Source: an archaeon
GTDB lineage: Archaea; Nanobdellota; Nanobdellia; Woesearchaeales; JAADFO01
Direction of reading: 5' to 3'
DNA: 64,000 nt
NCBI GenBank assembly: GCA_043817075.1
Contig: JBDRHG010000014.1
Location: forward strand, 21,989 to 85,988
Each line of letters begins with the position of its first letter. Position 1 is the first letter of the stretch. The position numbers and the translations under genes are program-made. Below, one piece after another: positions 815-60,998 of this stretch. A model generated the notes under the pieces. That model was not told the origin of the DNA and ran no database searches. It worked only from the letters and a program-made list of their open reading frames with translations.

Positions 815-1372
815 TTATTTATCTGCTTTCTTGCTAGGGGCCTTACGGTCCCGTACGATGAATGCCATGATAAGGACGATGAACAGCACCAGGATGATAG
901 ACTGGAACCACGGTGCTGTGTAGTTACGTGCGAACCAATCGCCTATATCGTCGAGCCAACCTATCGCATTGAACACGATGAGGAGTAGCGCGATGCCGAT
1001 TGCGCCGGTCAATGCCAATCTGAGACCTCCGCCGATGAACACTTCTTCCCCTTCCTTGTACATCGACCCCATGAGCAGCAGGAATAGCGTGATCATGATG
1101 AGGATGAGCACCGCATTGGCCACCGTGGAGTTGATGATGGCCACTAGCCTGGTGGACGCGATCACGAGGAAGGCGGAGACGAAAGCCATCATCGAATTGA
1201 GGTTTTTCTTGGTGTATTGGACGCCTTCGACCGTCTCTGTCCCGAGAATCTTGGTCTTCTCCAAGATGGCGAACATGATAGTGAAGACTAGCAGAAAAGG
1301 CAGAACTACATCATACACACCGACTTCCTCCAGGAAATGAACGACTCCCCGGAATGAACTCTCCTCGGACAT
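815..1372 (-). CDS. hypothetical polytopic membrane protein (paralog of 175-765)
   Basis: 185-aa ORF with multiple TM spans and a TTTATATAAT box about 25-30 nt upstream. Shares the N-terminal motif with the adjacent gene. Confidence 0.7.
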   Translation of the reverse strand: MSEESSFRGVVHFLEEVGVYDVVLPFLLVFTIMFAILEKTKILGTETVEGVQYTKKNLNSMMAFVSAFLVIASTRLVAIINSTVANAVLILIMITLFLLLMGSMYKEGEEVFIGGGLRLALTGAIGIALLLIVFNAIGWLDDIGDWFARNYTAPWFQSIILVLFIVLIMAFIVRDRKAPSKKADK

Positions 1373-2937: not shown

Positions 2938-3489
2938 ATGGATCTGCTGACGCTGATCATGGGAACATTATACCTGCTATTGCCAGGGGCCGTGGCCAAC
3001 ACGATGCCTATCCTGTTCAAGCATAGCCTCAAGATGCTCGCGCTACCGGTCGACGGCGGTGCGAGGCTCCTGGGTCACCGCGTGTTCGGCAGCCACAAGA
3101 CATGGCGAGGGATACTCGTCGGAGTTGCGGGGGGCACGTTGATGGCAGGCGTACAAGGGCTTCTTCACGGCCAAGGCACGTTGGTTTCCATATCGCTCGT
3201 CGACTACAGCGCCATGCCTGTGCTCATCTTCGGTTTCCTCTTCTCGATAGGTATCATGGTCGGTGACCTCGTGGAGAGCATGATCAAACGCCAAGTAGGT
3301 AAAAAACCGGGCCAGCGATGGTTCCCTTTCGACCAGATAGACAGCGCCATCGGTGGACTCATCTTCATCCTCCCCATGTATCAGCCGCCGGTGGCAGTCA
3401 TCATCACCGGACTCGTGCTGTCAATTATCCTACATGTCGGATTCCGCCATATCGGATATTATCTTGGCATCAATAAGAAGAGATGGTGA
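2938..3489 (+). CDS. carS: CDP-archaeol synthase (DUF46/CarS family)
   Basis: PVDGGARLLGHRVFGSHKTWRGILVG and GDLVESMIKRQVGKKPG...FDQIDS fit the CarS family pattern. Membrane protein of about 180 aa. Confidence 0.7.
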   Translation: MDLLTLIMGTLYLLLPGAVANTMPILFKHSLKMLALPVDGGARLLGHRVFGSHKTWRGILVGVAGGTLMAGVQGLLHGQGTLVSISLVDYSAMPVLIFGFLFSIGIMVGDLVESMIKRQVGKKPGQRWFPFDQIDSAIGGLIFILPMYQPPVAVIITGLVLSIILHVGFRHIGYYLGINKKRW

Positions 3490-3571
3490 CCAAGTGGTTC
3501 GAGGAAAGAAGAGCAAAGGGGAAAAAATCACAAAGGCGGTCGCCAGTCTTCGCTCAGCGAGGCAGAAGGTC

Positions 3572-4462
3572 ATGAAGATGGACAAGACCCTCGCACAGAA
3601 GGTATGTCGCTGGAGAAAAGGCATCAGGGAATGTTTGCCGCCGGAACGGCGTCTGGAGGGTGATAAGTATCCTGCCCTCGCCATCTCGACTGCCGAGGCA
3701 CACAACCGTAAATTCATGCAGGCAGCGGGTATGATTGTCGTCATCATCCTCTTCATCATCCCATTCTTCACTCCGCTCGGCGAAATGTTCTCGAATCCGC
3801 AAGGATTAAAGGCGCTTTTACTCTCATTCGGCCATCTTTCCTGGGCAGGCCTCGTGCTCCTCCAGTTCCTTCAGGTGGTCATATCTGTCATACCTGGACA
3901 GTTCATCAGCATCGCCGGGAGCTACGTGTTCGGATTCTGGATCGGCCTGCTGCTCAACCTCACCGGAGTGATGCTGGGATCCGTATTCGTGTTCAAGCTC
4001 GCGCGCCGCCACGGAAAGAGACTCGTGTTGACCTTTGTCGACCCGGAGGAACTTATCCACCTCAACGCATTCTTTGAGGAACGAGGCCTCATGGCGCTCG
4101 GCATGGCAAGGGTCGTGCCATTCTTCCCGAATGACGCGGTCAGTTTCGTCGCAGGCCTGACCAAGATACCGACCTGGAAATTCTTCCTCGTCACCCTCAT
4201 CGGATTCGTGCCGCAATTCGTGCTGCTCGCCATCTTCGGAGGACGCCTGGGTGAAGGCATGTTCGACACCTTCACATTGTCGATCGCGATCGCGCTCACC
4301 CTATTAGGGATGTTCTATTTCTTCCGCGGAACGCTGAAGAGGGTATTGCTCAAGGAGATCCGCGAATTGGAGCAGGACTTCACCAAATTGGAGAGGGAGA
4401 TCAGGAAACTCTTCTCACGGAGTCCTGATGATAGTCCGAAGCCTAGAAACAGCACCGGATGA
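3572..4462 (+). CDS. TVP38/TMEM64 (SNARE-associated, DedA-like) membrane protein
   Basis: VIPGQFISIAGSYVFGFWIGLLLNLTGVMLGSVFVFKLARRHGKRLV is typical of the family. The ORF-track start at 3353 overlaps carS, so I chose the first ATG after the carS stop (3572). The start is uncertain. Confidence 0.65.
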   Translation: MKMDKTLAQKVCRWRKGIRECLPPERRLEGDKYPALAISTAEAHNRKFMQAAGMIVVIILFIIPFFTPLGEMFSNPQGLKALLLSFGHLSWAGLVLLQFLQVVISVIPGQFISIAGSYVFGFWIGLLLNLTGVMLGSVFVFKLARRHGKRLVLTFVDPEELIHLNAFFEERGLMALGMARVVPFFPNDAVSFVAGLTKIPTWKFFLVTLIGFVPQFVLLAIFGGRLGEGMFDTFTLSIAIALTLLGMFYFFRGTLKRVLLKEIRELEQDFTKLEREIRKLFSRSPDDSPKPRNSTG

Positions 4463-7441: not shown

Positions 7442-8722
7442 ATGGCGCCAGAGAAGAGCATCGGACCAGAGAAGATCGGCAAGGAGATTGAGAAGAATAG
7501 TAAAGATACTGAAGAGAGCCCGAATGCGAGAAACGCATACGATATGCGAAAGGCCTTGGCCGCCCGCGCGAATGCTTTACCCGATCCGACCCCACGCGAC
7601 GAGTTGTGGCGCTACACCCGAATCGACAAGATCGACATCGACGGATTGATGGACACACCGGACGGGACGTTTCCCGCAGCAGAGCCGCAGACGCTCTCCA
7701 TCGAAGATAGCAAAAAAATCTGCTCTGCAGTCATCAATATCGGCAAGACCATCGATATCGCATGGCAATCAGCGGAATTCACAGAGGCAGGTATCAGCAT
7801 CGGTGGTGACGCATGCGAAGAGGTCGGATGGAGCCTCAAAGATAGCGACGATAAGATCGCGCTCCGCACCGTGACAGAGGCCTTCGTCACCCACACCGCC
7901 ACTGTCGCCCCTGATACCCGTCTGGATAAACCAATCCTGTTCATCATCGATCCTCGGGCGGGACCGTTGTCCGTCTCGCTCGACATCGGTCAGGACTCAG
8001 CCATCAGCATCATCGAGGACATCACAGCCAATCCCGGCTCATGCGGACTCGCCTATCATCAAGAGATCAGATGCGGGGACCGCGCGACAGTCGACGTGAG
8101 CGTCATCCAGGACCTGGCACCTGAAAACAGCGTCATGATATCTAAGGTCGCGCGGGCCGGCAAGGACAGCGTCGTCCGCTGGTTCGCAGCCAACATCGGC
8201 GGCGGGTTCTCTAGGATGTGGATCGACACCCTGTTCGAAGGGAAAGGCGGCGAAGGACGGGTAGCGGCGCTCACTATCGGAGACGGAGACCAACAAGGAT
8301 ACATCCTTACCAATGCAATACACAAAGCACCATCCACCACATGCACCATCGACCATCGCAGCGTGCTCGCAGGAAAGTCGAAGGGATTGTTCCGCGGCAA
8401 CATCGCCATCCGCAAGGGCGCCCAGGGCACATCATCATTCCTCACCGATCATGTCCTGAAGATCTCTCCTGACGCCAGCTCCGACAGCATCCCAGCGCTG
8501 GAGATAGACGCCAACGAGGTCATCGCATCCCATGCATCAACGACCGAGAGGCTCGATGACGAGTCGATGTTCTACCTCATGTCCCGCGGCATCCCTCGTG
8601 ACCATGCCGAGGAGCTCGTCGTGCAGGGATTCATGGAACCGGTCATCATGGCCGCGACACACCAGAAAGTGGCCGACCATGTCCGACAGCGGCTCAAGGA
8701 AAAGGTTTTTAACCGGCGCTAA
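7442..8722 (+). CDS. sufD: Fe-S cluster assembly protein SufD
   Basis: SufB/D-family C-terminal block (HASTTERLDDESMFYLMSRGIP). Lies between sufB and sufS. Confidence 0.85.
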   Translation: MAPEKSIGPEKIGKEIEKNSKDTEESPNARNAYDMRKALAARANALPDPTPRDELWRYTRIDKIDIDGLMDTPDGTFPAAEPQTLSIEDSKKICSAVINIGKTIDIAWQSAEFTEAGISIGGDACEEVGWSLKDSDDKIALRTVTEAFVTHTATVAPDTRLDKPILFIIDPRAGPLSVSLDIGQDSAISIIEDITANPGSCGLAYHQEIRCGDRATVDVSVIQDLAPENSVMISKVARAGKDSVVRWFAANIGGGFSRMWIDTLFEGKGGEGRVAALTIGDGDQQGYILTNAIHKAPSTTCTIDHRSVLAGKSKGLFRGNIAIRKGAQGTSSFLTDHVLKISPDASSDSIPALEIDANEVIASHASTTERLDDESMFYLMSRGIPRDHAEELVVQGFMEPVIMAATHQKVADHVRQRLKEKVFNRR

Positions 8723-8741
8723 TTGCACCCGGACAACCCCG

Positions 8742-9959
8742 ATGAACGTCAAGAGAATCCGAAAGGACTTCCCCATCCTCAACCAGCGAGTCAACAACAG
8801 ACCGCTGGTCTACCTGGACAATGCTGCCACGAGCCAGAAACCGCTCCATGTCCTCAACACGATCCGTTCTTTCTATAAGCGGCATAACGCCAATGTGCAC
8901 CGCGGCATCCACACCCTGAGCCAAGAGGCGACGGAGATGCACGAGGAAGCACGGGAGAAGACACGCCGATTCATCAATGCAGGATCGTTCTCTGAGATCG
9001 TCTTCACACGCAACGCCACCGAAGGGATCAACCTCGTCGCCCAGACCTTCGGACGCAGCATGCTCAAACGCGGTGACGAGATATTGGCGACCGCCATGGA
9101 GCACCATTCCAATATCGTGCCATGGCAGATGCTCGAACCCGCAGGCATCAAGGTCAAGTACGCCGGGCTCACCAAGGACGGAGAGCTCGACATCGACAGC
9201 GTCAACGAGATGATGGGCCCGAAGACCAAATTGCTCACCGTGACCGAAGCGTCGAATGTTCTCGCCACCATCAACGACACCAAAGAGCTCGCCAAACTCG
9301 CCCATGACAACGGCGCACGCATCTTGGTCGACGCATGCCAGAGCGTGCCCCATATGCCGGTCGACGTCCGCGACATGGACGTGGATTTCCTGGTGTTCTC
9401 CGGGCACAAGATGTGCGGCCCCACAGGGATCGGGACGCTCTACGGCAAGCGTGAGCTGTTGGATGAGATGCCACCGTTCCTAGGGGGAGGGGACATGATA
9501 CGGGAGGTCAGCCTGGAAAGGACGACCTACAACGACATCCCTTACAAGTTCGAGGCCGGGACGCCGAATATCGCTGGCGCGATCGGTCTGGGTGCTGCGA
9601 TAGATTACCTCAAAGACATCGGTATGGAGGACATCCGTATGCATACCGAGACTTTGATGAGACACGCACTCGATCGCATCGCCGACGAAGATGACGTAAC
9701 GGTCTACGGGCCAGCCGATCCCCGCAAGCGAAGCGGAGTCCTCTCATTCTCTCTCGGAGGAGTGCACCCCCACGATATAGCGACCATCCTCGACCGACAG
9801 GGGATCGCGATACGCTCAGGACATCATTGCGCACAACCGCTCATCCACCTTCTTGGCTTGGGAGCGGTGTCCAGGGCTTCGTTCTATCTCTACAACACCA
9901 AGGAAGAGGTGGACAAGCTCATCGAATCCTTCGGGAAAGTCAGGGGTGTGTTCGCATGA
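8742..9959 (+). CDS. sufS: cysteine desulfurase SufS (class V aminotransferase)
   Basis: VYLDNAATSQKP, the PLP-lysine region FSGHKMCGPTGIG, and the active-site loop RSGHHCAQP. Start set at MNVKRIRKDFPIL; the track ORF start at 8532 overlaps sufD. Confidence 0.9.
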   Translation: MNVKRIRKDFPILNQRVNNRPLVYLDNAATSQKPLHVLNTIRSFYKRHNANVHRGIHTLSQEATEMHEEAREKTRRFINAGSFSEIVFTRNATEGINLVAQTFGRSMLKRGDEILATAMEHHSNIVPWQMLEPAGIKVKYAGLTKDGELDIDSVNEMMGPKTKLLTVTEASNVLATINDTKELAKLAHDNGARILVDACQSVPHMPVDVRDMDVDFLVFSGHKMCGPTGIGTLYGKRELLDEMPPFLGGGDMIREVSLERTTYNDIPYKFEAGTPNIAGAIGLGAAIDYLKDIGMEDIRMHTETLMRHALDRIADEDDVTVYGPADPRKRSGVLSFSLGGVHPHDIATILDRQGIAIRSGHHCAQPLIHLLGLGAVSRASFYLYNTKEEVDKLIESFGKVRGVFA

Positions 9960-10396
9960 CCGACCCGCTCTACCGCGAGATGCTGTTGGACCATTACAAA
10001 CATCAGAAGAACAGAGGACGCCTGACCGACCCCGACGGCACTGCGCACGACGCCAATCCCATGTGTGGTGATGTGGTCGACGTCGACGTCAAGATCAAGG
10101 ACGGCAAGATTGTTGAGATCGGCTTCGACGGCCATGGCTGCGCCATATGCATGGCATCAGCGTCTTTGCTCAGCGAAAAGATCAAAGGCGGGAAAGTGGA
10201 AGACGTGATGGCAATCAATCAGGATGATGTGCTTGGACTTCTCGGCATCGAGACTCTAGGACCCGCCCGGATTAAATGCGCCATGCTCCCGGCAAAGACA
10301 ATGAAGCTAGCTTGTATCGATCATCTCACAAAGAGCCATGAAGAAAACAGCACCACCCAGATGGATGAGGGACTGGACAATCAGGATACATCATGA
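9956..10396 (+). CDS. sufU: SufU/IscU-type Fe-S scaffold or sulfur acceptor
   Basis: NPMCGDVV, GHGCAICMASAS and ARIKCAMLP carry the three conserved Cys regions. The ATGA start overlaps the sufS stop. Confidence 0.8.
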   Translation: MTDPLYREMLLDHYKHQKNRGRLTDPDGTAHDANPMCGDVVDVDVKIKDGKIVEIGFDGHGCAICMASASLLSEKIKGGKVEDVMAINQDDVLGLLGIETLGPARIKCAMLPAKTMKLACIDHLTKSHEENSTTQMDEGLDNQDTS

Positions 10397-10476
10397 GAAA
10401 CAACCCCTAGCAAGAGAAGAGTTCTGCCGATGATTTCAATTCATATATTTCAATTCATATGTTAGGCACCACAGTC

Positions 10477-12051
10477 CTAATCAGCAGGAATATTTTGCAC
10501 TGAGAATACAGAGAGGAGTTTCTCTACGACTTTCGCGCGCGCGATAGGATGGAATCTCATGCTGGCTGCGCGCGCATGACCTCCGCCTTCGATGCCTGCA
10601 TGAGGCAACGCTCCCTTCAATGAGACCATGATGGCATTGGCGTCGAAATCGAGCTGCTTCGAGAAACGGAAGGTGACGATATCATCTCCTAAACCTAGAG
10701 CGACCACCGGCATCCCAGTCTCATCCTCCACGGCGTCGCGGACCATGGACACCACCTTCGACGGTGTCGGAAAGTCTGAACGCGAGACCATGCCATAGCT
10801 ATCCAAGGTCACGAGGAGATAATTCTCCCGTTCTGCGACCGTCTCATATTCACGGGCATCGGCGAGCAGCTGTTCTTTGCGACGCGAGAGGCGTTTGAAG
10901 ATGCTCTCCACCAACCGATCCATGGCCTCGTCTCCAGGCGAGAGCAGACGGTCCATGTAGGTACGGCCTTCGATGAATTTCAGCGTATGCGTCTCGAAAT
11001 CAAGGACATCGGCACGCATCGCCAGATGCGCTTCGTCGATCTCGGCGGACGCGAGCTTGACGATCGCATCCCGCTCCTCGCCTTCACAACGGTCGGCGAT
11101 CGCGGCGACGGCGGCGATAAGGACAAGACCTTCTGTCTTGTCATTGATGAAGCGCGCGAGCTCTGCGCAGAGCATGCCTGCGGAGATCGATGAATCGCCT
11201 CCGACGAGATGAGGATTGATATGGACCTTGACGAAGCTGTCGGCCGCGACTTTACCTTCTACGAGTTCGCCAGGATCGTGATGGTCGAGCACGATGATGT
11301 CGCAATCGACCGCATGCACCTTCTCCAGAGCCGGCAGGTCCTCGTCTGTCGACCCGTTGTCAGTGACGATTACGAGCGGCCGTTTTGAGCCGAATCTCAC
11401 TTCGTCATCCAGCATGAAAGCCACATCTTTCGACGCATCCTCATAGCTGTAGAACGGAGTGCGGCTCGGGGAGCGTTTGTAGAGCCGGAAGCCAGCACCC
11501 TTGTCATCATGCTGGTCGCAGATCATCGGGATGACGGCACGTTCGATCGCGACCGCGGCGCAGTAACCATCAGCGTCACCATGGTGGCGGACGATGATGG
11601 GCCGTCGGTCCATGACGGCGGTACGTATCATCCTCGCAGCACCGGCGAAACGTTCGCGCATCTTCTCGAGGATGCCGGACTTAGTGAGGAAAGGAGGAGA
11701 GAAGGGCTCTGCCCGAGAGGCCTTTCTTTCCTTGACCGCTGACTCGAGCTGCTTGGCCTGGTCATCGCCGAGCTGTGCATACTCCTTGAGCTCGCCCTCG
11801 AGAGAATTGTTGTACTCACGCACCAAGAATGTCGCTGAGATCGCCATGCCCTTCGCAAGCTCAGGATGTGCACGGTCACCCGCCTTGCCTGAGAAGCTCT
11901 TTGCCTGGATGGTGCTGGTGGCGTCACTGAGCGTGAACACCGTCGGCCCTTTTGTCTGACGGATGCCGGTGATGAGACAGGACGCTGACACGGTCTTGCC
12001 CAAATCCTCCGAGGATATGCTTCCTAATCCCTTGACCTGAGGAGACTCCAT
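10477..12051 (-). CDS. RecJ-like DHH/DHHA1 phosphoesterase with N-terminal OB fold
   Basis: DHH-family motifs VRHHGDADGY, VTDNG, VLDHHDP, and DHHA1 GGGHARAAS. The N-terminal roughly 110 aa look OB-fold-like. Confidence 0.75.
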   Translation of the reverse strand: MESPQVKGLGSISSEDLGKTVSASCLITGIRQTKGPTVFTLSDATSTIQAKSFSGKAGDRAHPELAKGMAISATFLVREYNNSLEGELKEYAQLGDDQAKQLESAVKERKASRAEPFSPPFLTKSGILEKMRERFAGAARMIRTAVMDRRPIIVRHHGDADGYCAAVAIERAVIPMICDQHDDKGAGFRLYKRSPSRTPFYSYEDASKDVAFMLDDEVRFGSKRPLVIVTDNGSTDEDLPALEKVHAVDCDIIVLDHHDPGELVEGKVAADSFVKVHINPHLVGGDSSISAGMLCAELARFINDKTEGLVLIAAVAAIADRCEGEERDAIVKLASAEIDEAHLAMRADVLDFETHTLKFIEGRTYMDRLLSPGDEAMDRLVESIFKRLSRRKEQLLADAREYETVAERENYLLVTLDSYGMVSRSDFPTPSKVVSMVRDAVEDETGMPVVALGLGDDIVTFRFSKQLDFDANAIMVSLKGALPHAGIEGGGHARAASMRFHPIARAKVVEKLLSVFSVQNIPAD

Positions 12052-31668: not shown

Positions 31669-33777
31669 TCAATCCTTTGGCTCTCGCTCCACCGACGATA
31701 TCAGAAGCTCTGCAGCCTCACCATCCTTCTTGACAGAAGACGATACGATACGCAACGCATACCCGAAGAGCGGGGCATCGAGCACAAAAGTCTCGAACTC
31801 ACCACCTTCGCCTGCGACATTGATGCCGAGCTTATCGCGGAGACCCACCAGACGGCCGAGATGATCATTTGTCAACGGAACGCCGAGCCAGGACGCATCA
31901 AGCCCTTCGGCCGCGACCTTAGTCATGACGAAACGGTATCCTTCCCGTAAGAGCGCCCGCATCTCCTGCTCCTGGTCCATATGCCAGAGCGGCGAGAACA
32001 CCTTGAGGTTGAGCTCATCACAGATGCGTTCTATGCGGGTGCGTTGATAGTTGGAGAACAGAGCACCGGTCACCACACCCTGGATGCCATGGCGTCGTTT
32101 CGCCTCGAGCAAAGCGGCCCGAAGATCAGAGAGCTCCTGTTCTTTCTCACCTTTTGTCGCATGCGTCATCAACGGGATGCCCATAGCGTCGGCCTGCATC
32201 CCTGCGAGATCGACGGCGGGCGTGTGGAACATGAAAGAATCCTTGTTCTCACTCTTGACGGTGATGAGGCAACGTACGTCGTAGTTGAGACGTTTCTGAA
32301 TATGAAGGGCATAGACTGAATCTTTACCCGAAGAGAAGAGCACGCCCAGAGGGAGCTGAGGAATATCTGCGAGGGATGCGAGGTACGAAGATTTCGACTT
32401 GAAGCCTGCCTTCTTCGAACGGGTCTCGATGAGTTTGCTCATGCCGCTGCTGTATTGCGCTGCTGAACGCTTGGCAGCACTGAGGCCTTCGGGAAGGTCG
32501 AGGGCGACCGCCGCGTCCCGGAGCAGCTGTTTTGGGGCGACCCCCAACTTCTCTTTCGAGGGGATGGAGAACATATGAGAGACCAACGCATGGTCAAGAT
32601 AAGGTAGACGCAATTCTATATGGTGGGACATGGAGATGACATCATCCCGGTAGAGATCGCGTTCATAGATCCGTCGAAGATTGGATAGCGAATCTTCATT
32701 GACCGCAGGGTATACCCGCATCCGGCCATAGCCTGCGAAAAGGTCGTCTGCACCGAGACCTGAGTACATGACCTTTACATTGTCGCGTTTCGCGGCCTGG
32801 AGCGCAAAATGCAGCGTCGAGGCCACTTCGACCTTGACTGGGTCCTGGCTGCTGATGAGCCGCATGATCCCTGGAATCGCGCGGGCGAGCTGGGCCTCGC
32901 TCACCATGATGACCTTTAGAGGGATGCCGATCTTGGCTGCCGCCTCTTTGGCCTGCCTGACGACAGCCTCTTTTCCTTTGGTGGCCGTCAGATAGCCGGT
33001 GATGTCAGCCCCATGAGCGGTCAGCAGATGCGCAATGAGGCTTGAGTCCAGGCCACCCGAGAAAAGGACGCCCATCTTGCGACCGCTGATCCGCTTCTTT
33101 ACCGCGTCATCGAGGAGACCGGCGATGCGAAGGATATCTGTTGAGTGGTGGGACCCTATAGGAAGAGAAAAGAAAGGCAGCGAGTAGAAAGCGGTCTTGC
33201 CGGTCTGCTGGGAGAAGACCAACGCTTTTCGGGGATTGAGCTCTTCAGGCAGTTCGCCATGACCGATGAGAGGGGTACGCTCAGAGGAGAACCTAAGACC
33301 TTCTTTTCCAGCGCTGAACCACAGGGGCTTTACCCCGAGCCGGTCCCGAGCGAGGAGGACATATTGAAACTTCCGATGATAGACGAAGAAAGAGAACACA
33401 CCATCGAGCTTGGAAAGGAGCGTATCGATCACAGATGCCCGCACCTGTTCAGCCTTCACCGAGCTGAAGGCTTCGACACAGAGGCCTGCGAGGAGCTCTG
33501 CGTCGTTCTCTGCTTGGATGCCATGCCGCTTCGCCAGTCTTTCCCAATTATATATCTCGCAATTGGCACCGACCACGATATCATCACGGACGATGGGTTG
33601 CTGGACGTGGGAGACGATGGCATGCAAACAATGACCGAGATACGCGTCCCCGCCGACGAATGTGCCGCTGCCGTCGAGACCACGATGCTTCAGCGCCGCG
33701 AGGCCACGTTCTAGATCAGTCCGACCATCGGACCGTTCTACATTTCCACCATCCACAATGCCGAAGATGCCGCACAT
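31669..33777 (-). CDS. asparagine synthase (glutamine-hydrolysing) fused to a C-terminal Dph6-type (MJ0570/ATP_bind_4) PP-loop domain
   Basis: Start MCGIFGI provides the Ntn Cys2. First PP-loop is VLFSGGLDSS in the AsnB synthetase domain. The second module GVLFSSGKDSVYAL ... GALFSNYQRTRIERIC ... FSPLWH ... GEGGEFETFVLDAPLF is the diphthine-ammonia ligase type domain. Confidence 0.8.
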   Translation of the reverse strand: MCGIFGIVDGGNVERSDGRTDLERGLAALKHRGLDGSGTFVGGDAYLGHCLHAIVSHVQQPIVRDDIVVGANCEIYNWERLAKRHGIQAENDAELLAGLCVEAFSSVKAEQVRASVIDTLLSKLDGVFSFFVYHRKFQYVLLARDRLGVKPLWFSAGKEGLRFSSERTPLIGHGELPEELNPRKALVFSQQTGKTAFYSLPFFSLPIGSHHSTDILRIAGLLDDAVKKRISGRKMGVLFSGGLDSSLIAHLLTAHGADITGYLTATKGKEAVVRQAKEAAAKIGIPLKVIMVSEAQLARAIPGIMRLISSQDPVKVEVASTLHFALQAAKRDNVKVMYSGLGADDLFAGYGRMRVYPAVNEDSLSNLRRIYERDLYRDDVISMSHHIELRLPYLDHALVSHMFSIPSKEKLGVAPKQLLRDAAVALDLPEGLSAAKRSAAQYSSGMSKLIETRSKKAGFKSKSSYLASLADIPQLPLGVLFSSGKDSVYALHIQKRLNYDVRCLITVKSENKDSFMFHTPAVDLAGMQADAMGIPLMTHATKGEKEQELSDLRAALLEAKRRHGIQGVVTGALFSNYQRTRIERICDELNLKVFSPLWHMDQEQEMRALLREGYRFVMTKVAAEGLDASWLGVPLTNDHLGRLVGLRDKLGINVAGEGGEFETFVLDAPLFGYALRIVSSSVKKDGEAAELLISSVEREPKD

Positions 33778-33903
33778 CCCTTGTGCAGAGGTCCTGGAGT
33801 ATATAAAGGTTGCAGCACGGAGACCCAGGAGAATGATATCAGACCGGATGTCGGGGCAGGACCCAGGCAACATTTAAATAGGCCTCGTCCTCACCGACCA
33901 TTG

Positions 33904-50793: not shown

Positions 50794-50924
50794 TGGGGCG
50801 ACCGGGATTTGAACCCGGGACACCTAGATATCTGATAATCATAGGCCCGCAGGCCCATTCATATCCAGGCAGTGACGCCGTGGCATCTTCAGTCTAGTGC
50901 TCTCCCAGACTGAGCTACCGCCCC
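50794..50924 (-). tRNA. tRNA-Phe(GAA) with 57-nt intron at 37/38
   Basis: GGGGCGG-UA-GCUC..GAGC-A-CUAGA-CUGAAGA ... UCUAG-GUGUC-CCGGG-UUCAAAU-CCCGG-UCGCCCC-A. The intron is about 50830-50886. CUGA (positions 32-35) pairs with UCAG in the intron, flanked by 3-nt bulges AGA and AUA (BHB). Confidence 0.85.
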
Positions 50925-53006: not shown

Positions 53007-54224
53007 TTAAGCCTGCAGCCACGCCACCTGGTCCTTGTCGAGGTCGAGCTCAAGCGCCATGGCCGCTGAAGAGGTCTTGTCATGACGGAAGATATACTGT
53101 AGGAACGGGACGGTCGCGCTGACGGCCTCGCGCTGGGAAGTGTGAGTATGCGAGGCGACGACAGCTCCGATGGTTTTCCGCCTGGCATTCTTCTGGTTGG
53201 CTATCCATATCTTGAGAAGCCGTCCGGTGCGTTGGTATGTTACCTGCGCAGGATTCTTCTCGTCCTTTGCCAGCGCCACACCTACGCTTGAAAGCGCGCT
53301 CACGTAGACGAGGAATCGCCAATGCTGCCAGCGACGGATCCGGCCACGGAACACGTCAGCCGAAGATAGCGAACGATATGCTCGGTCTAGATCGGCCGGA
53401 GAGGAATATTCTCTCGGTATGTTCCAGTCCATCCAGAGGATGGCCTCATCGAGGTCGATCTCAAGATTGAGGAATGCGTCTCTCGCGATCTCTGCCTTGG
53501 TGGTCTTGAACACCCGCACCAATGCATGGGTAATCTCAGCCTCCCGGTCCCTGGTCGATATCGAATCGATAGCTTCCTTGTCGAGGCTGCCGTTGGCCGA
53601 GACAGCGCTCTGAAGATCATTGATAGCCGCACGTGCGTCGCCGCCGCATCTCCGCGCCACGGTCTTCAGCGACATCTCCTCATAGGATATCTTCTCTCCA
53701 TCGCAGATCCGTTTGAGGATGGCAAAGACGTCGAGGTATCCCATGGGGGAGAACTCGATGGATTCGGCCTTCTTCTTTAAGGCCTTGAATTTGGGATCGT
53801 CGATCGCATTGGTGGTCATGATGATTGGATGAAGCGTAGTATCGAGGAGCGCGGCCAATGCGGGGATGCCGCCCCGGTCCTTCTGTCCAGAAAGTCCGTC
53901 GATCTCATCGACCAGGATGACTTTACCTTTAGCGAACAGGGATGCCTGGCCTGCGGCGGAACCGACGATGGATTGTATCCCTTCCTTGTTACGGAAGTCA
54001 GAAGCGTTGACCTCCATCACCTCAAGGTCCATATCGTTCGCGAGAGCGTGGACGGCGGCGCTCTTGCCGGTCCCGGTCGGTCCCACGAGCACCGCGGCTC
54101 GGACTGACCTCTGCTTATACGTCGCGAGCAAGCTCTTGAGCTGGCGCATCGCGTTGTCCTGGCCAATGATCTCCGAAGCGGTCTTAGGCCGGTACTGCTC
54201 TGTCCAGGGGACTGCTGTTGCCAT
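53007..54224 (-). CDS. rfcL: replication factor C large subunit
   Basis: PWTEQYRPKT, Walker A GPTGTGKS and Walker B ILVDEIDGL. Start set at MATAVPW. Confidence 0.85.
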   Translation of the reverse strand: MATAVPWTEQYRPKTASEIIGQDNAMRQLKSLLATYKQRSVRAAVLVGPTGTGKSAAVHALANDMDLEVMEVNASDFRNKEGIQSIVGSAAGQASLFAKGKVILVDEIDGLSGQKDRGGIPALAALLDTTLHPIIMTTNAIDDPKFKALKKKAESIEFSPMGYLDVFAILKRICDGEKISYEEMSLKTVARRCGGDARAAINDLQSAVSANGSLDKEAIDSISTRDREAEITHALVRVFKTTKAEIARDAFLNLEIDLDEAILWMDWNIPREYSSPADLDRAYRSLSSADVFRGRIRRWQHWRFLVYVSALSSVGVALAKDEKNPAQVTYQRTGRLLKIWIANQKNARRKTIGAVVASHTHTSQREAVSATVPFLQYIFRHDKTSSAAMALELDLDKDQVAWLQA

Positions 54225-54329
54225 GAGAATCTCAGGAATCGGGAACGTGAGCGCTGGTATAAAAGGTTTGTGCAGGGATGTCCAGTGGCATAGCAACGTT
54301 TTAAATAGGGGGGATCCACCCATCCGTGC

Positions 54330-54842
54330 ATGGCAGCGGACGGAATCTGGACACCGATCTTCGTCGCGGCGATCTTCATTCTCCCTGCATGGATCGCCAA
54401 CCTCTCATTCACTTTGGTTGGAGTCGTAGTCAAGCGGTTCGGACTGTGGGACGCCCCTCTCGACAAGGGATTAAAGCTTTGGGACGGAAGGCCATTGCTC
54501 GGCACGCATGTGACCATATGGGGTCTTGTCGACAGCTTCATCGCCGGTACAGTCGTAGGCGTTATGCAGGGCAGGCCTATGGCAGGTTTTCTCATGGGCA
54601 TCGGTGCCTATGCAGGGAATGCGCTCGGCAGTTTCCTCAAGAGACGGGTCGCGATGAAGGAAGGGAGATTCTTCCCCGTGCTCGACCATATCGACTATCT
54701 GATAGGTGCCATACCTCTGGCCATGCTGATCGAGCCAGCCTCCATGATGACCATCGCCTTGGCGATCGCGCTCACCCTGGTATTGCACCCGCTGGCATGC
54801 GTTGTCGGCTATCTGCTCAAGTTCAAGAGTGAACCGTTGTGA
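54330..54842 (+). CDS. second CarS-family (DUF46, CDP-archaeol synthase-like) membrane protein
   Basis: DAPLDKGLKLWDGRPLLGTHVTIWGLV and GNALGSFLKRRVAMKEG...LDHIDY align with the motifs of carS at 2938-3489. Confidence 0.65.
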   Translation: MAADGIWTPIFVAAIFILPAWIANLSFTLVGVVVKRFGLWDAPLDKGLKLWDGRPLLGTHVTIWGLVDSFIAGTVVGVMQGRPMAGFLMGIGAYAGNALGSFLKRRVAMKEGRFFPVLDHIDYLIGAIPLAMLIEPASMMTIALAIALTLVLHPLACVVGYLLKFKSEPL

Positions 54843-56338
54843 GAAAAAAGAGGAAGAGCAAGACATCCACTGAGGGCGCGTCAGCCAATCGGCCACTGCG
54901 CGCGTATATCATCACCTCGATCATCATGGCGACCCTCATCGCGATCGCGTACTGGTCGTTCCCTGCCAGGATGGCCATGAAGTTCTTCTCCAGCATCCTC
55001 GCACCGGCCGCATCTTTCGCCAAACTGTACATGCTGCTGGCGTTCGTGATGATATCATGCTTGGTGCTCATCTTGGGATGGCGGCCCAGCAAGAGACTCG
55101 GGACGAGGGCCGCTTGGACGATGCTCTTTGCGATAGCAGGTGTGTCCGCCCTCGGGATGATATCCCATGTCTGGCTCGTCCAAGAGATGGACATCCCCTT
55201 TTTCGATTATTCCTACATGGTCCGCGAAGGCGAAGGGACCTCGACATCGTTCAATCATATACATACGCTCAAGCCCATAATACAATACATAGGATGGCTT
55301 GTCCCGGGAGGGCTCGGTGAGACCTATGACCACGGCATCGGAGCGGATGGTCTGATTCCGACGTGGATTATCGCGCCTACAGCCATCCTCTACCTGATGA
55401 TTATCCTCAGTTATATCATCGTCCTCCTCGCAAGGGAAGAGTCATGGAGGAAGGAAGGACTCCTGCACAGGATTCCGCTCCTGATTATCGTGGCGTTCAT
55501 GGTCACCAAATCTCTCATCGACGGTGGGATATTTACGTATGAGTCGCTCATAGGCATACCTATCCTAGCATGGCTCAGCTTCGCGAGGACTCCTCGTCTC
55601 GGTTGGAAAAAGGCCACGATAAGCGCGCTCATACTCTTCGTCTATTCGAGCGCCATCGTCGCTCTCATCAGCAAGTTCGTATTCCCTGTCGATTTACCGA
55701 TCAAGATCCTTTATTTCATCGCACCGGGCGCATCCCTGATCGGCCTGGTCGCGTTCATGTATTGGTTCCCTCATGCAATCGCGAAGAAAAGGACCGCCAG
55801 CATGGTGTTCTCGTTCGTGTTCATTGTATTGGTGCTCTTGATGACCCTTCAAGGATTGAAGATGTATCACGATATCACCTTCCTTTTCCGTGACGTCTCT
55901 GCTGGTCAGACAGTCCGTATGGTCAGCGACCATGAGATCGAAGGCATGACCGCGATCTATGATGATGACATCAAGTATTTGTATGAGACGACCATGACAA
56001 AGGACATCACACGCGGAGAGTTGGTGGACCACTACCGCCTCAATCCCTCCAGGTATCCTGTCGACGTGATCGGGGAGGATTGCGTAAGAGATTCGGTGAA
56101 GAGGGTGGGCTTGTCGATCCGTATCGTGGAGGCGAGTGAAGATGTGAAACGAGGCGTCCTCGGTCCGTCACCCAATGAACAGTTCCTCAACGTGACATAT
56201 TTTGAATTTTGCGATCCAGCCATATGCGATCATTACCTGATTGTCGAGAGACACGGCTGTCTCCCTGCGGAAAAGCATATCCTTGGAAGTTTCCTATCCG
56301 CGATCGGCTACAAACAGTACATCATGATCAGTTCGTAG
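54839..56338 (+). CDS. hypothetical polytopic membrane protein with C-terminal soluble Cys-containing domain (paralog A)
   Basis: The GTGA start overlaps the stop of the carS-like gene. About 9-10 TM spans. Shares motifs with the next gene: HIH[TS]LKPII, TYDHG, KSLIDGG[IL]FTYE, GPSPNE. Confidence 0.65.
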   Translation: MRKKRKSKTSTEGASANRPLRAYIITSIIMATLIAIAYWSFPARMAMKFFSSILAPAASFAKLYMLLAFVMISCLVLILGWRPSKRLGTRAAWTMLFAIAGVSALGMISHVWLVQEMDIPFFDYSYMVREGEGTSTSFNHIHTLKPIIQYIGWLVPGGLGETYDHGIGADGLIPTWIIAPTAILYLMIILSYIIVLLAREESWRKEGLLHRIPLLIIVAFMVTKSLIDGGIFTYESLIGIPILAWLSFARTPRLGWKKATISALILFVYSSAIVALISKFVFPVDLPIKILYFIAPGASLIGLVAFMYWFPHAIAKKRTASMVFSFVFIVLVLLMTLQGLKMYHDITFLFRDVSAGQTVRMVSDHEIEGMTAIYDDDIKYLYETTMTKDITRGELVDHYRLNPSRYPVDVIGEDCVRDSVKRVGLSIRIVEASEDVKRGVLGPSPNEQFLNVTYFEFCDPAICDHYLIVERHGCLPAEKHILGSFLSAIGYKQYIMISS

Positions 56339-56350
56339 GTCTTAGACAAG

Positions 56351-57823
56351 ATGAGAAAATCAAAACATCCCCATCAACAATACCTCATCACCATCGGCGT
56401 GATGATCGCGCTCATGGTGTTGGCCGCGTCCTCTTTGCCTATCGCGATGGCGCTCAAATTCCTCACGTCGATCTTCGCGCCTGCTTTCTCTTTCGTCAAG
56501 GCCTATATGCTGTGTGGATTCATCGCATTATCCTGTGCCGTACTGCTGATCAACTGGAGACCGAGTCCGAAGCTCGTACGCCGGGCCAATATAAAATTCC
56601 TAGTGATGATCGGCTCCGTGCTCTTGCTGGGCATCGCATCGCATATCGCTGTCGTGTCCACGTTGGACCTCCCGGCGTTCTCCCATCTCGACGTGGTCAA
56701 GGATGGCCACATATCGTCGTCGAAGATAAACCACATCCACTCCCTCAAACCCATCATCCATCTCCTCGGATCAATCATGCCCGGCGGGCTATCTGACACC
56801 TATGACCATGGGGGACCTTTCGTCGGCCTCGTGCCAAATGTGATCATCATCCCTGCAGCGCTGTTTTTCGTGGTCGCTTTCCTCGCATACTTCCTGGTGC
56901 TCATGGCAAAGGAGAAGATGTGGAAGAAGGAGGGTCGACTGTATCTCTTGCCGTTGTTCATCATCGTATCGTTCACCGTGCTCAAGTCGCTGATCGACGG
57001 TGGACTGTTCACCTATGAGATGCTCCTCGGCGGGCCCATCCTTGTCTGGCTCACCCTATCCAGAAAACCGGTGATGCGATGGCGTAAGACTGCCGCTTGG
57101 ACTGCGGGAGTGCTCCTCGGAGCCATGATCATCGATGCCATCATCAGCGAGTTGATCTACCCTGTCGATGTCCCGAGCAAGCTCTACTATTTCGTGGCTC
57201 CCGGTATTGTGCTGATGGCGTCATTCCTCGCCATCTACCTCATTCCACGGTTCACTGCGGAGCACAAGCGGATAGGATTGATAATCACACCAATCATCTA
57301 TATCTTGATCCTCATCGTGACCATACAAGGGATGTCAACATTCTATGAGATCAAGTTCCTGACAAGGGAGATACCTGGAGGCTCCAACATCAGGTTCGTC
57401 ACCGACCTGCCTGTAGACGGATTGACAAAGGTTTATCAGGATGGAACCAGATATGTATATGACACAAAGTTGGATAGCGGATACCGCTTTTCCGATCTCA
57501 TCCAGCGTTACGACCTGAACCCTTCATGGTATCCAATCGATATCGTCGATGTGGATTGCGGATCAGAGGACACAAACCAGTTCATCATGAAACTTCATAT
57601 CATCAAGGCTACGGATTCGGCGATGAAAGGAAAACCCGGACCATCACCAAATGAGGACTATATCTGGATTCACAAGATTACAGGATGCGAAGAGAAAGGG
57701 TGCGACCAAGAACTCACGCTGCAATCGAAGGGTTGCACGTCTTCCCCACGTAACATGATGGCAAGCTTCCTGACCTATGTCGGTTACGATTGGTTCGTCA
57801 TCCTCGACACAGGCATCAAGTGA
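56351..57823 (+). CDS. hypothetical polytopic membrane protein with C-terminal soluble Cys-containing domain (paralog B)
   Basis: Lies 12 nt after paralog A. Collinear similarity over the full length, including the motifs listed for paralog A. Confidence 0.65.
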   Translation: MRKSKHPHQQYLITIGVMIALMVLAASSLPIAMALKFLTSIFAPAFSFVKAYMLCGFIALSCAVLLINWRPSPKLVRRANIKFLVMIGSVLLLGIASHIAVVSTLDLPAFSHLDVVKDGHISSSKINHIHSLKPIIHLLGSIMPGGLSDTYDHGGPFVGLVPNVIIIPAALFFVVAFLAYFLVLMAKEKMWKKEGRLYLLPLFIIVSFTVLKSLIDGGLFTYEMLLGGPILVWLTLSRKPVMRWRKTAAWTAGVLLGAMIIDAIISELIYPVDVPSKLYYFVAPGIVLMASFLAIYLIPRFTAEHKRIGLIITPIIYILILIVTIQGMSTFYEIKFLTREIPGGSNIRFVTDLPVDGLTKVYQDGTRYVYDTKLDSGYRFSDLIQRYDLNPSWYPIDIVDVDCGSEDTNQFIMKLHIIKATDSAMKGKPGPSPNEDYIWIHKITGCEEKGCDQELTLQSKGCTSSPRNMMASFLTYVGYDWFVILDTGIK

Positions 57824-60017: not shown

Positions 60018-60692
60018 ATGAAAGCCGACGAATTTCGGAAAAATGTACTTGTGGTATTGCCAAAACAGTACCGTCTCCTCTTGGGATGCTATTTAAAGAA
60101 TCCTCAGGCTTCGTACAAAGAGATTATCAATGATACTGGCATGAGTGCAGCTATCATTGCACATGCGAAGCATGATTGCATGAACTTGGGGTTCATGACA
60201 AATGGGTCGGGATGTAATGTCACGCCCACAGGTAATTTATTTTTAAAGTTACAATCTGACTCAAAAGAGGAGTGGGAGGCACTTCATGATAATGCACTCA
60301 AGATAGACTTGTTCCGAGAATTACATAGTGGTCTTGGCTCTAAGCCTAAGCGACATGAAATCTTCGGTGTCTTGAGGGCTAAAGCTCCAGAAAATTATGC
60401 AAAACGAATCATTCAACGAATTGTGAGACGATATTATCAGTATGTTATAGGTATAAAAGTCATGCCTAAGGGCCGCTCATTAAAACCTAACGAGATAGGG
60501 AATCAAACGACCATCAACATTGTCAAGTGGACAAATGATTGTGATGTATGGAGTTTTCTCGTTAAGAAATATCATCTATCAGGAGATGAACTCAAGCACA
60601 TCATTGAAGCATTTCCAAAGTTGGCAAAGAAGGAAATTGATGAAGAGATGCTTAATGAGCATATAAAAAAAAAATATGGGGAGCTGGTGTAG
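60018..60692 (+). CDS. hypothetical protein (possible N-terminal wHTH), transposon cargo
   Basis: 224-aa AT-rich ORF. No recognisable catalytic motif. The last 15 nt overlap the 5' end of tRNA-Thr. Confidence 0.5.
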   Translation: MKADEFRKNVLVVLPKQYRLLLGCYLKNPQASYKEIINDTGMSAAIIAHAKHDCMNLGFMTNGSGCNVTPTGNLFLKLQSDSKEEWEALHDNALKIDLFRELHSGLGSKPKRHEIFGVLRAKAPENYAKRIIQRIVRRYYQYVIGIKVMPKGRSLKPNEIGNQTTINIVKWTNDCDVWSFLVKKYHLSGDELKHIIEAFPKLAKKEIDEEMLNEHIKKKYGELV

Positions 60693-60748
60693 TGATAGCA
60701 TCCCGGCCTTGTGAGCCGGTGATCCGGGATCAAATCCCGGGCTCCCCA
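60678..60748 (+). tRNA. tRNA-Thr(UGU), atypical D and T loops
   Basis: GGGGAGC/GCUCCCC acceptor, anticodon arm CCGGC-CUUGUGA-GCCGG, T arm CCGGG-AUCAAAU-CCCGG. The D loop AGUGAUA lacks the usual GG, and position 54 is A. Confidence 0.75.
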
Positions 60749-60754
60749 TTTTTT

Positions 60755-60828
60755 GGGCTGGTCGTCTAATCTGGAAAGGACAGGTACCTACTGAGTGTCG
60801 AATCCGGGTTCAAATCCCGGCCAGCCCA
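60755..60828 (+). tRNA. type-I tRNA with anticodon ACU (Arg-UCU-like body)
   Basis: GGGCUGG/CCAGCCC acceptor, D arm GUCU-AAUCUGGAAA-GGAC, anticodon arm GGUAC-CUACUGA-GUGUC, 4-nt variable loop, T arm CCGGG-UUCAAAU-CCCGG. Followed by a TTTTTT run. Confidence 0.7.
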
Positions 60829-60998
60829 CCGTTTTTTAATATAAAATGCCAGTGACAGTGGAACCCAGATAAATGCCTAAGAAGCATTTAGTGGCTGTCA
60901 CCAACAAAAACATGTACGATAACTTAGTTTATATAGAATGGGTATAATTTGTAACGAATTGGTATAATATCTAATGTTTTGATATTTGAACTGTATTT

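Follow-up and report, generated by a model that had tools for sequence, protein, structure and literature searches.

The carS2-F1-F2 gene cluster of a Woesearchaeales archaeon represents, at this locus, a conserved membrane module of two components, in which a protein related to CarS, the cytidine diphosphate (CDP)-archaeol synthase, is paired with a large membrane protein of a new family. The cluster lies in the 64,000-nucleotide (nt) stretch analysed here, called the window below (positions 21,989 to 85,988 of the forward strand of contig JBDRHG010000014.1, assembly GCA_043817075.1); window coordinates are positions in that stretch. F is our shorthand for the large membrane-protein family, whose gene is duplicated here to give F1 and F2. 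The core of the module consists of two genes, F and a CarS-like gene, and is found mainly in bacteria of the Candidate Phyla Radiation (CPR) and in DPANN-type archaea. The F/CarS-like pair looks like a real, undescribed membrane-lipid system; the literature searched gave no description of the module, and we class it as a new system centred on a new protein family, with a putative function that only its context suggests. CarS has been treated as a marker of archaeal lipid synthesis, and the divergent CarS-type protein described here is half of a conserved gene pair that is present in all 13 CPR/Patescibacteria genomes recovered, a group reported to be unable to make membrane lipids. The other half, F, has no family, structural relative or literature, yet it carries a sharply conserved site that is predicted to face outward.

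In the window, carS2 (54330-54842, +) encodes a 170-aa CarS-like protein of the F-paired type with five transmembrane (TM) segments (PF01864, E=1.3e-24). Its TGA stop overlaps the GTG start of F1 (54839-56338, +; 499 aa) in a GTGA tetranucleotide at 54839-54842 (+; read from the sequence as ...CCG TTG TGA), an arrangement which indicates that carS2 and F1 are likely to be translationally coupled. The ATG of F2 (56351-57823, +; 490 aa) follows the F1 stop after a gap of 12 nt. F1 and F2 are collinear paralogs that align without gaps (38% identity over 485 residues, E=7e-133); each is the nearest relative of the other, and F2, like F1, keeps every residue conserved in the family. The overlap, gene sizes, spacing and collinear paralogy had been described in a first-pass annotation of this DNA and stand as given there. 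That annotation also treated the three genes as a unit; the second F gene is a lineage-specific duplication rather than a fixed third component. Formation of a hetero-oligomer may be the reason for the duplication.

Pairing of F with a CarS-like gene recurs well beyond this locus. Of 23 distinct contexts, 19 have F beside a CarS-like gene, in three arrangements and in both archaea and bacteria. The order CarS then F is found in the window and in loci L001, L002-L004, L008/L009 and L012, and the reverse order in L007, while in a Woesearchaeota metagenome-assembled genome (MAG) the two genes are convergent and overlapping; that the order can also be reversed or convergent points to selection for adjacency as such. 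P0003 and P0004, the nearest relatives of CarS2 (46% identity), each have an overlapping F gene downstream (L001; L002-L004), and stop/start overlaps are seen in L002 (ATGGTAA), L008 (ATGGTGGTAA) and L001. Scanning genomes with an F subfamily alignment yielded 13 loci, each from a CPR/Patescibacteria MAG (Saccharibacteria, CPR3, Nomurabacteria, Paceibacteria), and purpose-built hidden Markov models (HMMs) placed a same-strand CarS-like gene directly downstream of F in every one of the 13, with the genes overlapping or at most about 30 nt apart in HMM-envelope coordinates. A genome scan with alignment A1 gave no loci, and metagenome scans with alignments A8 and A9 were both empty. CPR bacteria account for 44 of 150 representatives of the F family, and another member occurs in an Altiarchaeota MAG. 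The E-value of the F paralogy and the recurrence of the pairing are far beyond chance. The first-pass annotation had made its proposal depend on finding the three genes together in some other genome; adjacency in bacteria as well as archaea supports a real unit in the window and makes an undescribed membrane-lipid or lipid-carrier pathway, as then suggested, a fair reading. The setting in Thermoplasmata that it envisaged gives way to one in CPR bacteria and DPANN-type archaea.

F constitutes a new family of 9-TM proteins. Neither F1 nor F2 matches a Pfam (2025 copy) or NCBIfam (2026) family or a PDB sequence, in agreement with the earlier failure to recognise a known family in them, and a search of PDB sequences with the F profile was empty. 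An exhaustive HMMER search with a two-paralog profile (F1+F2) found 240 cluster representatives at E<=1e-3 and 73 at E<=1e-10, most of them 450-510 aa long and matching end to end; F1 and F2 match the F family HMM over their full length with E=7e-130 and E=6e-135. Conservation, structural model and topology were all derived from an alignment of 41 sequences. K145, G166, G229 and G230 are invariant in this set, and G57, S59, K62, H140, H142, P174, K224, D228, C415, C474 and G490 are nearly so, with the pairs H140/H142 and K224/D228 conserved in at least 90% of sequences. Both window proteins keep S59, K62, H140, H142, K145, D164, G166, P174, K224, D228, G229, G230, C415 and C474. The resulting signatures are F-A-x-G-x-S-x-x-K, H-x-H-x-x-K, D-x-G (D164-x-G166) and K-x3-D-G-G, the last retained in nine of nine members tested. 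The strings first reported as strict motifs (HIH[TS]LKPII, TYDHG, KSLIDGG[IL]FTYE and GPSPNE) are indeed all present in F1 and F2, but only the cores H-x-H-x-x-K, D-x-G and K-x3-D-G-G extend across the family, and GPSPNE is specific to the F1/F2 pair.

Structural modeling is consistent with the novelty of the family. AlphaFold2 gave a pLDDT of 42 for F1 with a 2-sequence alignment and 89.2 (pTM 0.89) with the 41-sequence alignment. In the confident model nine TM helices are followed by an alpha/beta C-terminal domain of about 150 residues that includes Cys415, Cys458, Cys463 and Cys474, and the long loop 3 contains a beta-hairpin and a short helix; the overall layout is in keeping with the original description of 9-10 TM spans followed by a Cys-containing domain of that size. 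Foldseek searches of the PDB with this model returned no match at E<=0.001 (best E=0.16, TM-score at most 0.17), with no glycosyltransferase C (GT-C) enzyme among the 50 matches listed of 254 at E<=10, and a search of BFVD found no relative. Among the 41 family members, Pfam matches at a threshold of 0.01 were confined to Phosphodiest (3), Sulfatase (2), Orf78 (1) and MASE6 (1); no GT-C and no transporter family was matched, the latter being the kind of match that the first-pass annotation had named as telling against its proposal. On these results F is assigned neither to GT-C nor to the LtaS/EptA type, nor to any family in those Pfam and NCBIfam releases. Readings of the F motifs as prepilin-peptidase-like or PLD/PAP2-like were also considered and rejected, as the motifs do not fit and a fold match is absent.

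The topology of F follows from its charge distribution: across the 41 sequences the density of Lys plus Arg is 0.16-0.30 in the N-terminus and loops 2, 4, 6 and 8 and 0-0.07 in loops 1, 3, 5 and 7, and F is therefore assigned an N-in, 9-TM, C-out arrangement that turns all conserved motifs and the C-terminal domain outward. In F1 the H-x-H-x-x-K signature (H140-I-H142-T-L-K145; 55256-55273, +) lies in the large outside loop 3 and the K-x3-D-G-G motif (K224-S-L-I-D228-G229-G230; 55508-55528, +) at the outer end of TM5. Loop 1 contributes the conserved Gly, Ser and Lys of F-A-x-G-x-S-x-x-K and no conserved Asp or Glu; the conserved Asp residues are in loop 3 and at the end of TM5. Taken together, these His, His, Asp, Asp, Lys, Lys and Ser residues, clustered at the outer surface of the membrane, are suggestive of a metal and phosphate site. 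The C-terminal domain (about aa 350-499; 55886-56335, +), defined from the modelled secondary structure, is placed outside the cell by the charge-based topology and is predicted from Cys conservation to bear disulfides; Cys415 and Cys474 are 95% conserved and Cys458 and Cys463 about 50%.

The partner of F belongs to the CarS family and tends to depart from it at a metal-ligand position. For comparison, the window holds a canonical paralog outside the module, carS1 (2938-3489, +; PF01864 2.3e-27, PF01148 1.2e-07), which keeps the GD Asp and the TWRG motif and is 28% identical to CarS2. It sits with a CDP-OH_P_transf gene (2313-2867) and a VTT/DedA-domain gene (3353-4462), all assigned by Pfam, so that the earlier account of a canonical lipid cluster plus a second CarS-like gene is confirmed. 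CarS2 scores 87.6 bits against PF01864 (cutoff 22) and aligns end to end with Aeropyrum pernix CarS 5GUF (E=4.8e-18, residues 9-169). Its 112.8 bits fall short of the cutoff of 148 for the NCBIfam CarS equivalog (NF003114), which is a poor discriminator here, as carS1 also falls below it at 117.8. CarS2 keeps S101, K104, R105, R106, D119, D122, D45 and N24 (motifs S-x-x-K-R-R, D-x-x-D, P-x-D and A-N). We compared 18 F-paired CarS-like proteins with 51 canonical CarS sequences, taking residue roles from a CdsA review (PMC7018664) and from the alignment. All 18 paired proteins keep N24, D45, G58, S101, K104, R105 and D119, and nearly all keep R106 and D122. The Asp of the GD motif, present in 51 of 51 canonical proteins, is His in 11 of the paired proteins, Asn in 3, Ser in 1 and Asp in 3, and is Cys in the Woesearchaeota partner.

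Profile alignment to TmCdsA (4Q2G) places the CarS GD Asp on the Asp of FGD at chain residue 240 and the second Asp of L-D-Q-L-D on chain residue 270; with an inferred tag offset of 21 residues, these would be Asp219 and Asp249. The Asp219-Asp249 dyad of TmCdsA holds the catalytic Mg/K centre (PMC7018664). At the Asp219-equivalent position the metal-ligand Asp is replaced in 16 of 19 partners, with Asn97 in CarS2 (codon AAT, 54618-54620, +), while the second dyad Asp, equivalent to Asp249, is present in CarS2 as D122. Eukaryotic CDS enzymes have Gly at the Asp219-equivalent position, yet are active (PMC7018664), and the substitution is suggestive of changed chemistry rather than proof of inactivity. 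The paired group has also lost R64 and shows Q120 changed to His in 16 of 18, N157 to Cys in 15 of 18 and Y21 to Trp in 17 of 18. A neighbour-joining tree groups CarS2, P0003, P0004 and the Saccharibacteria partner in one clade, which is weak evidence in proteins this short. CarS2 is probably not a redundant housekeeping CDP-archaeol synthase, a role that carS1 would fill. Despite its CarS-like Pfam family, we would not file it as a CDP-archaeol synthase, because one defining catalytic feature fails and no head-group enzymes are encoded alongside. The "dedicated CDP-activating enzyme" of the first-pass annotation accordingly stands only in part: most catalytic-site residues are kept, but with Asn in place of an Asp that is invariant in canonical CarS the assignment is not secure.

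Neighbouring genes point to surface structures, lipid flipping and phosphoester chemistry. In 11 of the 13 CPR loci a conserved type IV pilin-like gene stands beside the module, upstream of F in 10 and downstream in 1, with two tandem copies in L018 and L019; it always adjoins the F/CarS-like pair (L013 4433-4996; equivalents in L014-L021, L023 and L024). The encoded proteins form a CPR-specific family with a G|FTLIEL signal, GspG-like similarity, two Cys pairs, a DPCG motif and, at the C-terminus, an invariant G-S-F. A DedA/VTT gene follows the CarS-like gene directly in 3 of the 13 (L017 6804-7331, L018 6825-7352, L019 6803-7336), and its best NCBIfam match is the undecaprenyl-phosphate transporter UptA, at 42 bits against a cutoff of 250. 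CarS-DedA adjacency is a recurrent observation in otherwise unrelated contexts, namely the carS1 cluster (window 2938-4462, +) and these three CPR modules. Just upstream of the module, a NUDIX hydrolase gene occurs in Saccharibacteria (L013 3713-4162) and in Woesearchaeota (L026 7307-7969); it might hydrolyse a nucleoside-diphosphate-linked intermediate.

Archaeal-type loci, including the window, have no pilin-like gene adjoining the module. Membrane proteins of about 800 aa that distantly match PF10131 (PTPS_related) are encoded beside the module in L002 (2750-5212 and 12786-15245) and L012 (1066-3417), and beside an F gene fused to an alkaline phosphatase (AP) superfamily domain in L006 (11337-13808); they are similar to one another (26-27% identity, E down to 2e-47). 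In L002 the module is part of a large cluster with an ABC2 exporter and glycosyltransferases, and L005 carries a divergent LPG_synthase_TM gene; a 300-aa protein of L008, considered as another LPG_synthase_TM relative, showed no similarity.

Fusions of F offer a further indication of its chemistry. The closest relatives of F1 and F2, P0055 (909 aa), P0056 (880 aa) and P0058 (882 aa), consist of an F module followed by a PF01663 Phosphodiest domain of the nucleotide pyrophosphatase/phosphodiesterase (NPP)/AP superfamily (E down to 1.6e-21), and P0055 is named by NCBI as an "alkaline phosphatase family protein [archaeon]". By topology, the fused domain would lie outside the cell. PDB sequence searches with this domain gave ENPP-type matches, all of them non-significant, and Pfam finds the domain absent from most F members, F1 and F2 included.

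The reading we favour, tentatively and with slightly less than even confidence, is that both proteins work on a single lipid phosphate, each from its own side of the membrane, with a cytidine triphosphate (CTP)-dependent step inside and F chemistry outside. The CarS nucleotide site is on the cytoplasmic face (PMC9385802), and on that side the CarS-like subunit would use CTP to activate or re-phosphorylate a membrane lipid, with archaetidic acid, phosphatidic acid, a polyprenol and a polyprenyl phosphate as candidates. On the outside, the His/His/Asp/Lys cluster of F, as a probable metal and phosphate site, would consume or generate a lipid-linked phospho-compound and in doing so modify or build a surface component. 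This component may differ by lineage: a pilin-like protein in CPR bacteria, and a glycan-type polymer in the archaeal loci, as suggested by their GT-C-like, glycosyltransferase and ABC-exporter neighbours. The CarS-like partner would then recharge the spent lipid, a logic resembling that of an outer-face phosphotransferase combined with a lipid-recycling kinase. Support comes from the pairing in 19 of 23 contexts, the gene overlaps, the opposite faces on which the two proteins are expected to act, the distinct partner type, the separate carS1, the fused PF01663 domain and the neighbours. As substrate, a polyprenyl-phosphate carrier has the appeal that it would suit a module which spans the lipid divide and occurs in glycan and DedA contexts; a glycerolipid such as archaetidic or phosphatidic acid is the known substrate of the enzyme family and would fit lipid salvage in CPR and DPANN.

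A bolder form of this idea is a cross-domain, trans-membrane lipid machine that has moved between archaea and CPR bacteria and that either captures external or host lipid, with re-activation by CTP, or exports a CTP-activated lipid with which F, outside the cell, would modify pilin-like and other surface proteins by adding a lipid or phospho-group. We regard this as unlikely. If true, it would make of F a new class of membrane enzyme that faces outward and has a new fold, and it would give an "archaeal" lipid-activating enzyme a conserved role in bacteria unable to make their own lipids.

Several observations weigh against a shared, catalytic lipid cycle. The catalytic role of F is inferred from conserved polar residues only, in a family with no homology to characterised enzymes. 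An adjacent CarS-like gene is absent in four F contexts (L005, the fused F-AP of L006, the P0066 contig and L027), no F-CarS fusion occurs among about 170 F family sequences, and the 13 CPR loci are phylogenetically related rather than 13 independent events. The L008 and L012 partners fall among ordinary CarS in the neighbour-joining tree, and in some lineages F may pair simply with a housekeeping CarS. The proteins of the window include no pilin, GT-C-like or PTPS_related protein and no AP domain. With one of the two metal-ligand Asp residues absent, the partner could, moreover, be a non-catalytic subunit. Developed as an explanation of its own, this would make the CarS-like protein an inactive or regulatory lipid-binding subunit of an F complex whose function is CTP-free, such as a pilus or envelope assembly factor or a transporter. 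The frequent loss of the Asp219 equivalent fits such a role, as an Asp to Asn change at this position inactivates Streptococcus mitis CdsA (PMC7018664), and the large hydrophobic rear surface of CarS has been proposed as a site of protein interaction (PMC9385802). Strict retention of S101, K104, R105, R106, D119, D122, D45 and N24 across divergent partners argues, on the other hand, for retained nucleotide and phosphate binding; the eukaryotic CDS enzymes with Gly at this position are active, and His, Asn, Cys and Ser can themselves ligate metals. We consider a pseudoenzyme quite improbable.

Other explanations keep the CarS-like protein active and differ in the lipid or in the role of F. Recycling of a carrier lipid would be a narrower case of the favoured reading. 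Dolichol kinase belongs to the same superfamily as CdsA and CarS, and the CarS-like protein could likewise be a CTP-dependent polyprenol kinase, or a polyprenyl-phosphate activator, with F as an outer-face enzyme processing polyprenyl (pyro)phosphate; together with DedA, where present, they would keep the pool of undecaprenyl or dolichyl phosphate charged. Polyprenyl phosphates are common to both domains, and the module spans the bacterial/archaeal lipid divide; the CTP-dependent dolichol kinase has its CTP site facing the cytoplasm (PMC13586052, PMC11542857), the DedA protein next to the module is most like UptA, the archaeal contexts are rich in glycan genes, and a Gracilibacterium (CPR) is reported to lack the methylerythritol phosphate and mevalonate pathways yet to make peptidoglycan (PMC6851277). 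That UptA match is, however, far below the curated cutoff (42 vs 250 bits), and DedA is confined to 3 of 13 CPR loci; the partner proteins score as CarS and not as the dolichol-kinase type, for which a kinase-specific signature was not definable. Catalytic-domain homologs of dolichol kinase are already present in archaea and bacteria (PMC11542857), and F has no link to pyrophosphatase families. Such recycling of a carrier lipid is, on balance, unlikely.

Salvage of exogenous lipid appears improbable. Here F would capture or process host or environmental lipid outside the cell, the fused phosphodiesterase stripping head groups, and the CarS-like protein would re-activate the resulting phosphatidic or archaetidic acid inside for head-group rebuilding. 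The NPP-type domain family includes lysophospholipase-D-type enzymes, and members of the F family cluster in CPR bacteria (44 of 150 representatives), with others in MAGs of Woesearchaeota and Altiarchaeota. A lack of membrane-lipid synthesis has been reported for CPR bacteria (PMC6851277), and archaetidic or phosphatidic acid is the natural type of substrate for CarS/CdsA (PMC9385802). Nevertheless, the AP domain is missing from most F members, F1 and F2 among them, the tight link to pilin-like and glycan genes would be left unexplained, and the organism of the window encodes tryptophan biosynthesis, other biosynthetic genes and the canonical lipid cluster, so that it is not obviously a reduced symbiont. 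Least probable, to the point of being very doubtful, is that F1 and F2 are GT-C-type lipid-linked glycosyltransferases using a CDP-activated or polyprenol-linked donor. They are polytopic, with the N-terminus inside, and have large loops and a C-terminal domain on the outside, and F adjoins PTPS_related proteins, which we take to be members of the Pfam GT-C clan, in L002, L006 and L012. The resemblance noted in the first-pass annotation goes no further than size and topology: a model with pTM 0.89 matches no GT-C or other solved structure, none of the 41 members has a GT-C Pfam match, and the separate GT-C-like genes beside F suggest a different activity for F itself.

Comparison with known systems helps to place the favoured two-faced lipid cycle. 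Relative to CarS (PF01864; A. pernix 5GUF) and TmCdsA (4Q2E/4Q2G), CarS2 has the same size and 5-TM layout, aligns to 5GUF throughout, and shares S-x-x-K-R-R, D-x-x-D, D45 and N24; it differs in the Asn at the metal-ligand Asp, in the alteration of R64, Q120 and N157 across the F-paired group, in falling below the NCBI equivalog cutoff, and in being encoded with F rather than with head-group enzymes. Pairs of an outer-face phosphotransferase and a lipid-recycling kinase are known from Campylobacter jejuni eptC-dgkA and the mcr-3-dgkA cassette; the outward enzyme uses a phospholipid head group and the small inner-face enzyme re-phosphorylates the lipid by-product. The likeness lies in the gene for a putative outward-facing membrane enzyme beside that for a small, putative inner-face lipid enzyme, and an AP-superfamily domain, as in EptA-type enzymes, occurs in some F proteins. 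The F core is nevertheless unrelated to the 5-TM anchor of EptA and LtaS, most F proteins, including F1 and F2, have no AP domain, and the F partner is of the CTP-transferase superfamily rather than DgkA.

Likewise, enzymes that modify pilins can be encoded directly after pilin genes, as with Pseudomonas aeruginosa TfpO/PilO and the GT-C enzyme TfpW. The CPR loci resemble these in having a pilin-like gene followed by a gene for a large polytopic membrane protein with an outside domain, whereas F resembles O-antigen-ligase-type and GT-C enzymes neither in sequence nor in fold, and the archaeal loci have no adjoining pilin-like gene. Escherichia coli YnbB, which presumably keeps the standard catalytic residues, differs from CarS2 in being of CdsA type and in having no known F-like partner. 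It is a CdsA paralog dedicated to the glycolipid MPIase (PMC7018664), and as such a precedent for a second, specialised CDP-lipid-synthase paralog that serves an envelope glycolipid rather than bulk phospholipid. The dolichol kinase SEC59/DOLK, a polytopic enzyme with a cytoplasm-facing CTP site, recharges a carrier lipid spent across the membrane (PMC13586052, PMC11542857). Recharging a lipid used on the other side is the role proposed for CarS2; DOLK is, however, much larger (about 15 TM) and has the motif DxxAxxxGxxxGx8KKTxEG, whereas CarS2 scores as CarS and not as the DOLK type.

If the pair does handle lipids across the membrane, it would bear on how ultra-small CPR and DPANN symbionts obtain, recycle and use membrane and carrier lipids, and also on pilus and surface modification, which should be testable with Saccharibacteria genetics. 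For annotation, a "second carS" gene should not be taken for a redundant CDP-archaeol synthase.

Upstream of carS2, the TATA-box-like element TTTAAATA (54300-54307, +; read from the sequence) lies 23-30 nt before the ATG, in the short divergent region between carS2 and the gene for a homolog of the replication factor C (RFC) large subunit; as a candidate archaeal promoter, it may give a leaderless or short-leader transcript. The longest open reading frame of the RFC homolog (53007-54323, -) starts 6 nt from the carS2 ATG, and its conserved sequence begins about 34 codons downstream of that start (MATAVPWTEQYRPK). Because the conserved sequence starts so far in, the true divergent intergenic region is probably about 100 nt.

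Tandem duplication of F is also seen on the bacterial contig L027, where an F-F pair (8001-10909, 27% identity) is independent of, and older than, F1/F2; the same contig carries RuBisCO large-subunit and DsrE/DsrH-like genes.

Elsewhere in the window, an Rfam tRNA match over 131 nt (50794-50924, -; 53 bits) that ARAGORN did not report probably represents an archaeal tRNA with an intron. At 60677-60830 (+), two tRNAs separated by 5 nt are called by ARAGORN as Thr(TGT) and as Ser with the anticodon ACT, which is unusual and possibly a mis-call. Tandem paralogous membrane proteins of about 190 aa are encoded at 175-765 and 815-1372 (-) and share a conserved N-terminal segment (…V-L-L-P-F-L-L-x-F-T-I…K-I-L-G). 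A 734-aa fusion protein (31669-33873, -) joins a glutamine amidotransferase and asparagine-synthase module with a Diphthami_syn_2 (diphthamide synthase-type) domain.

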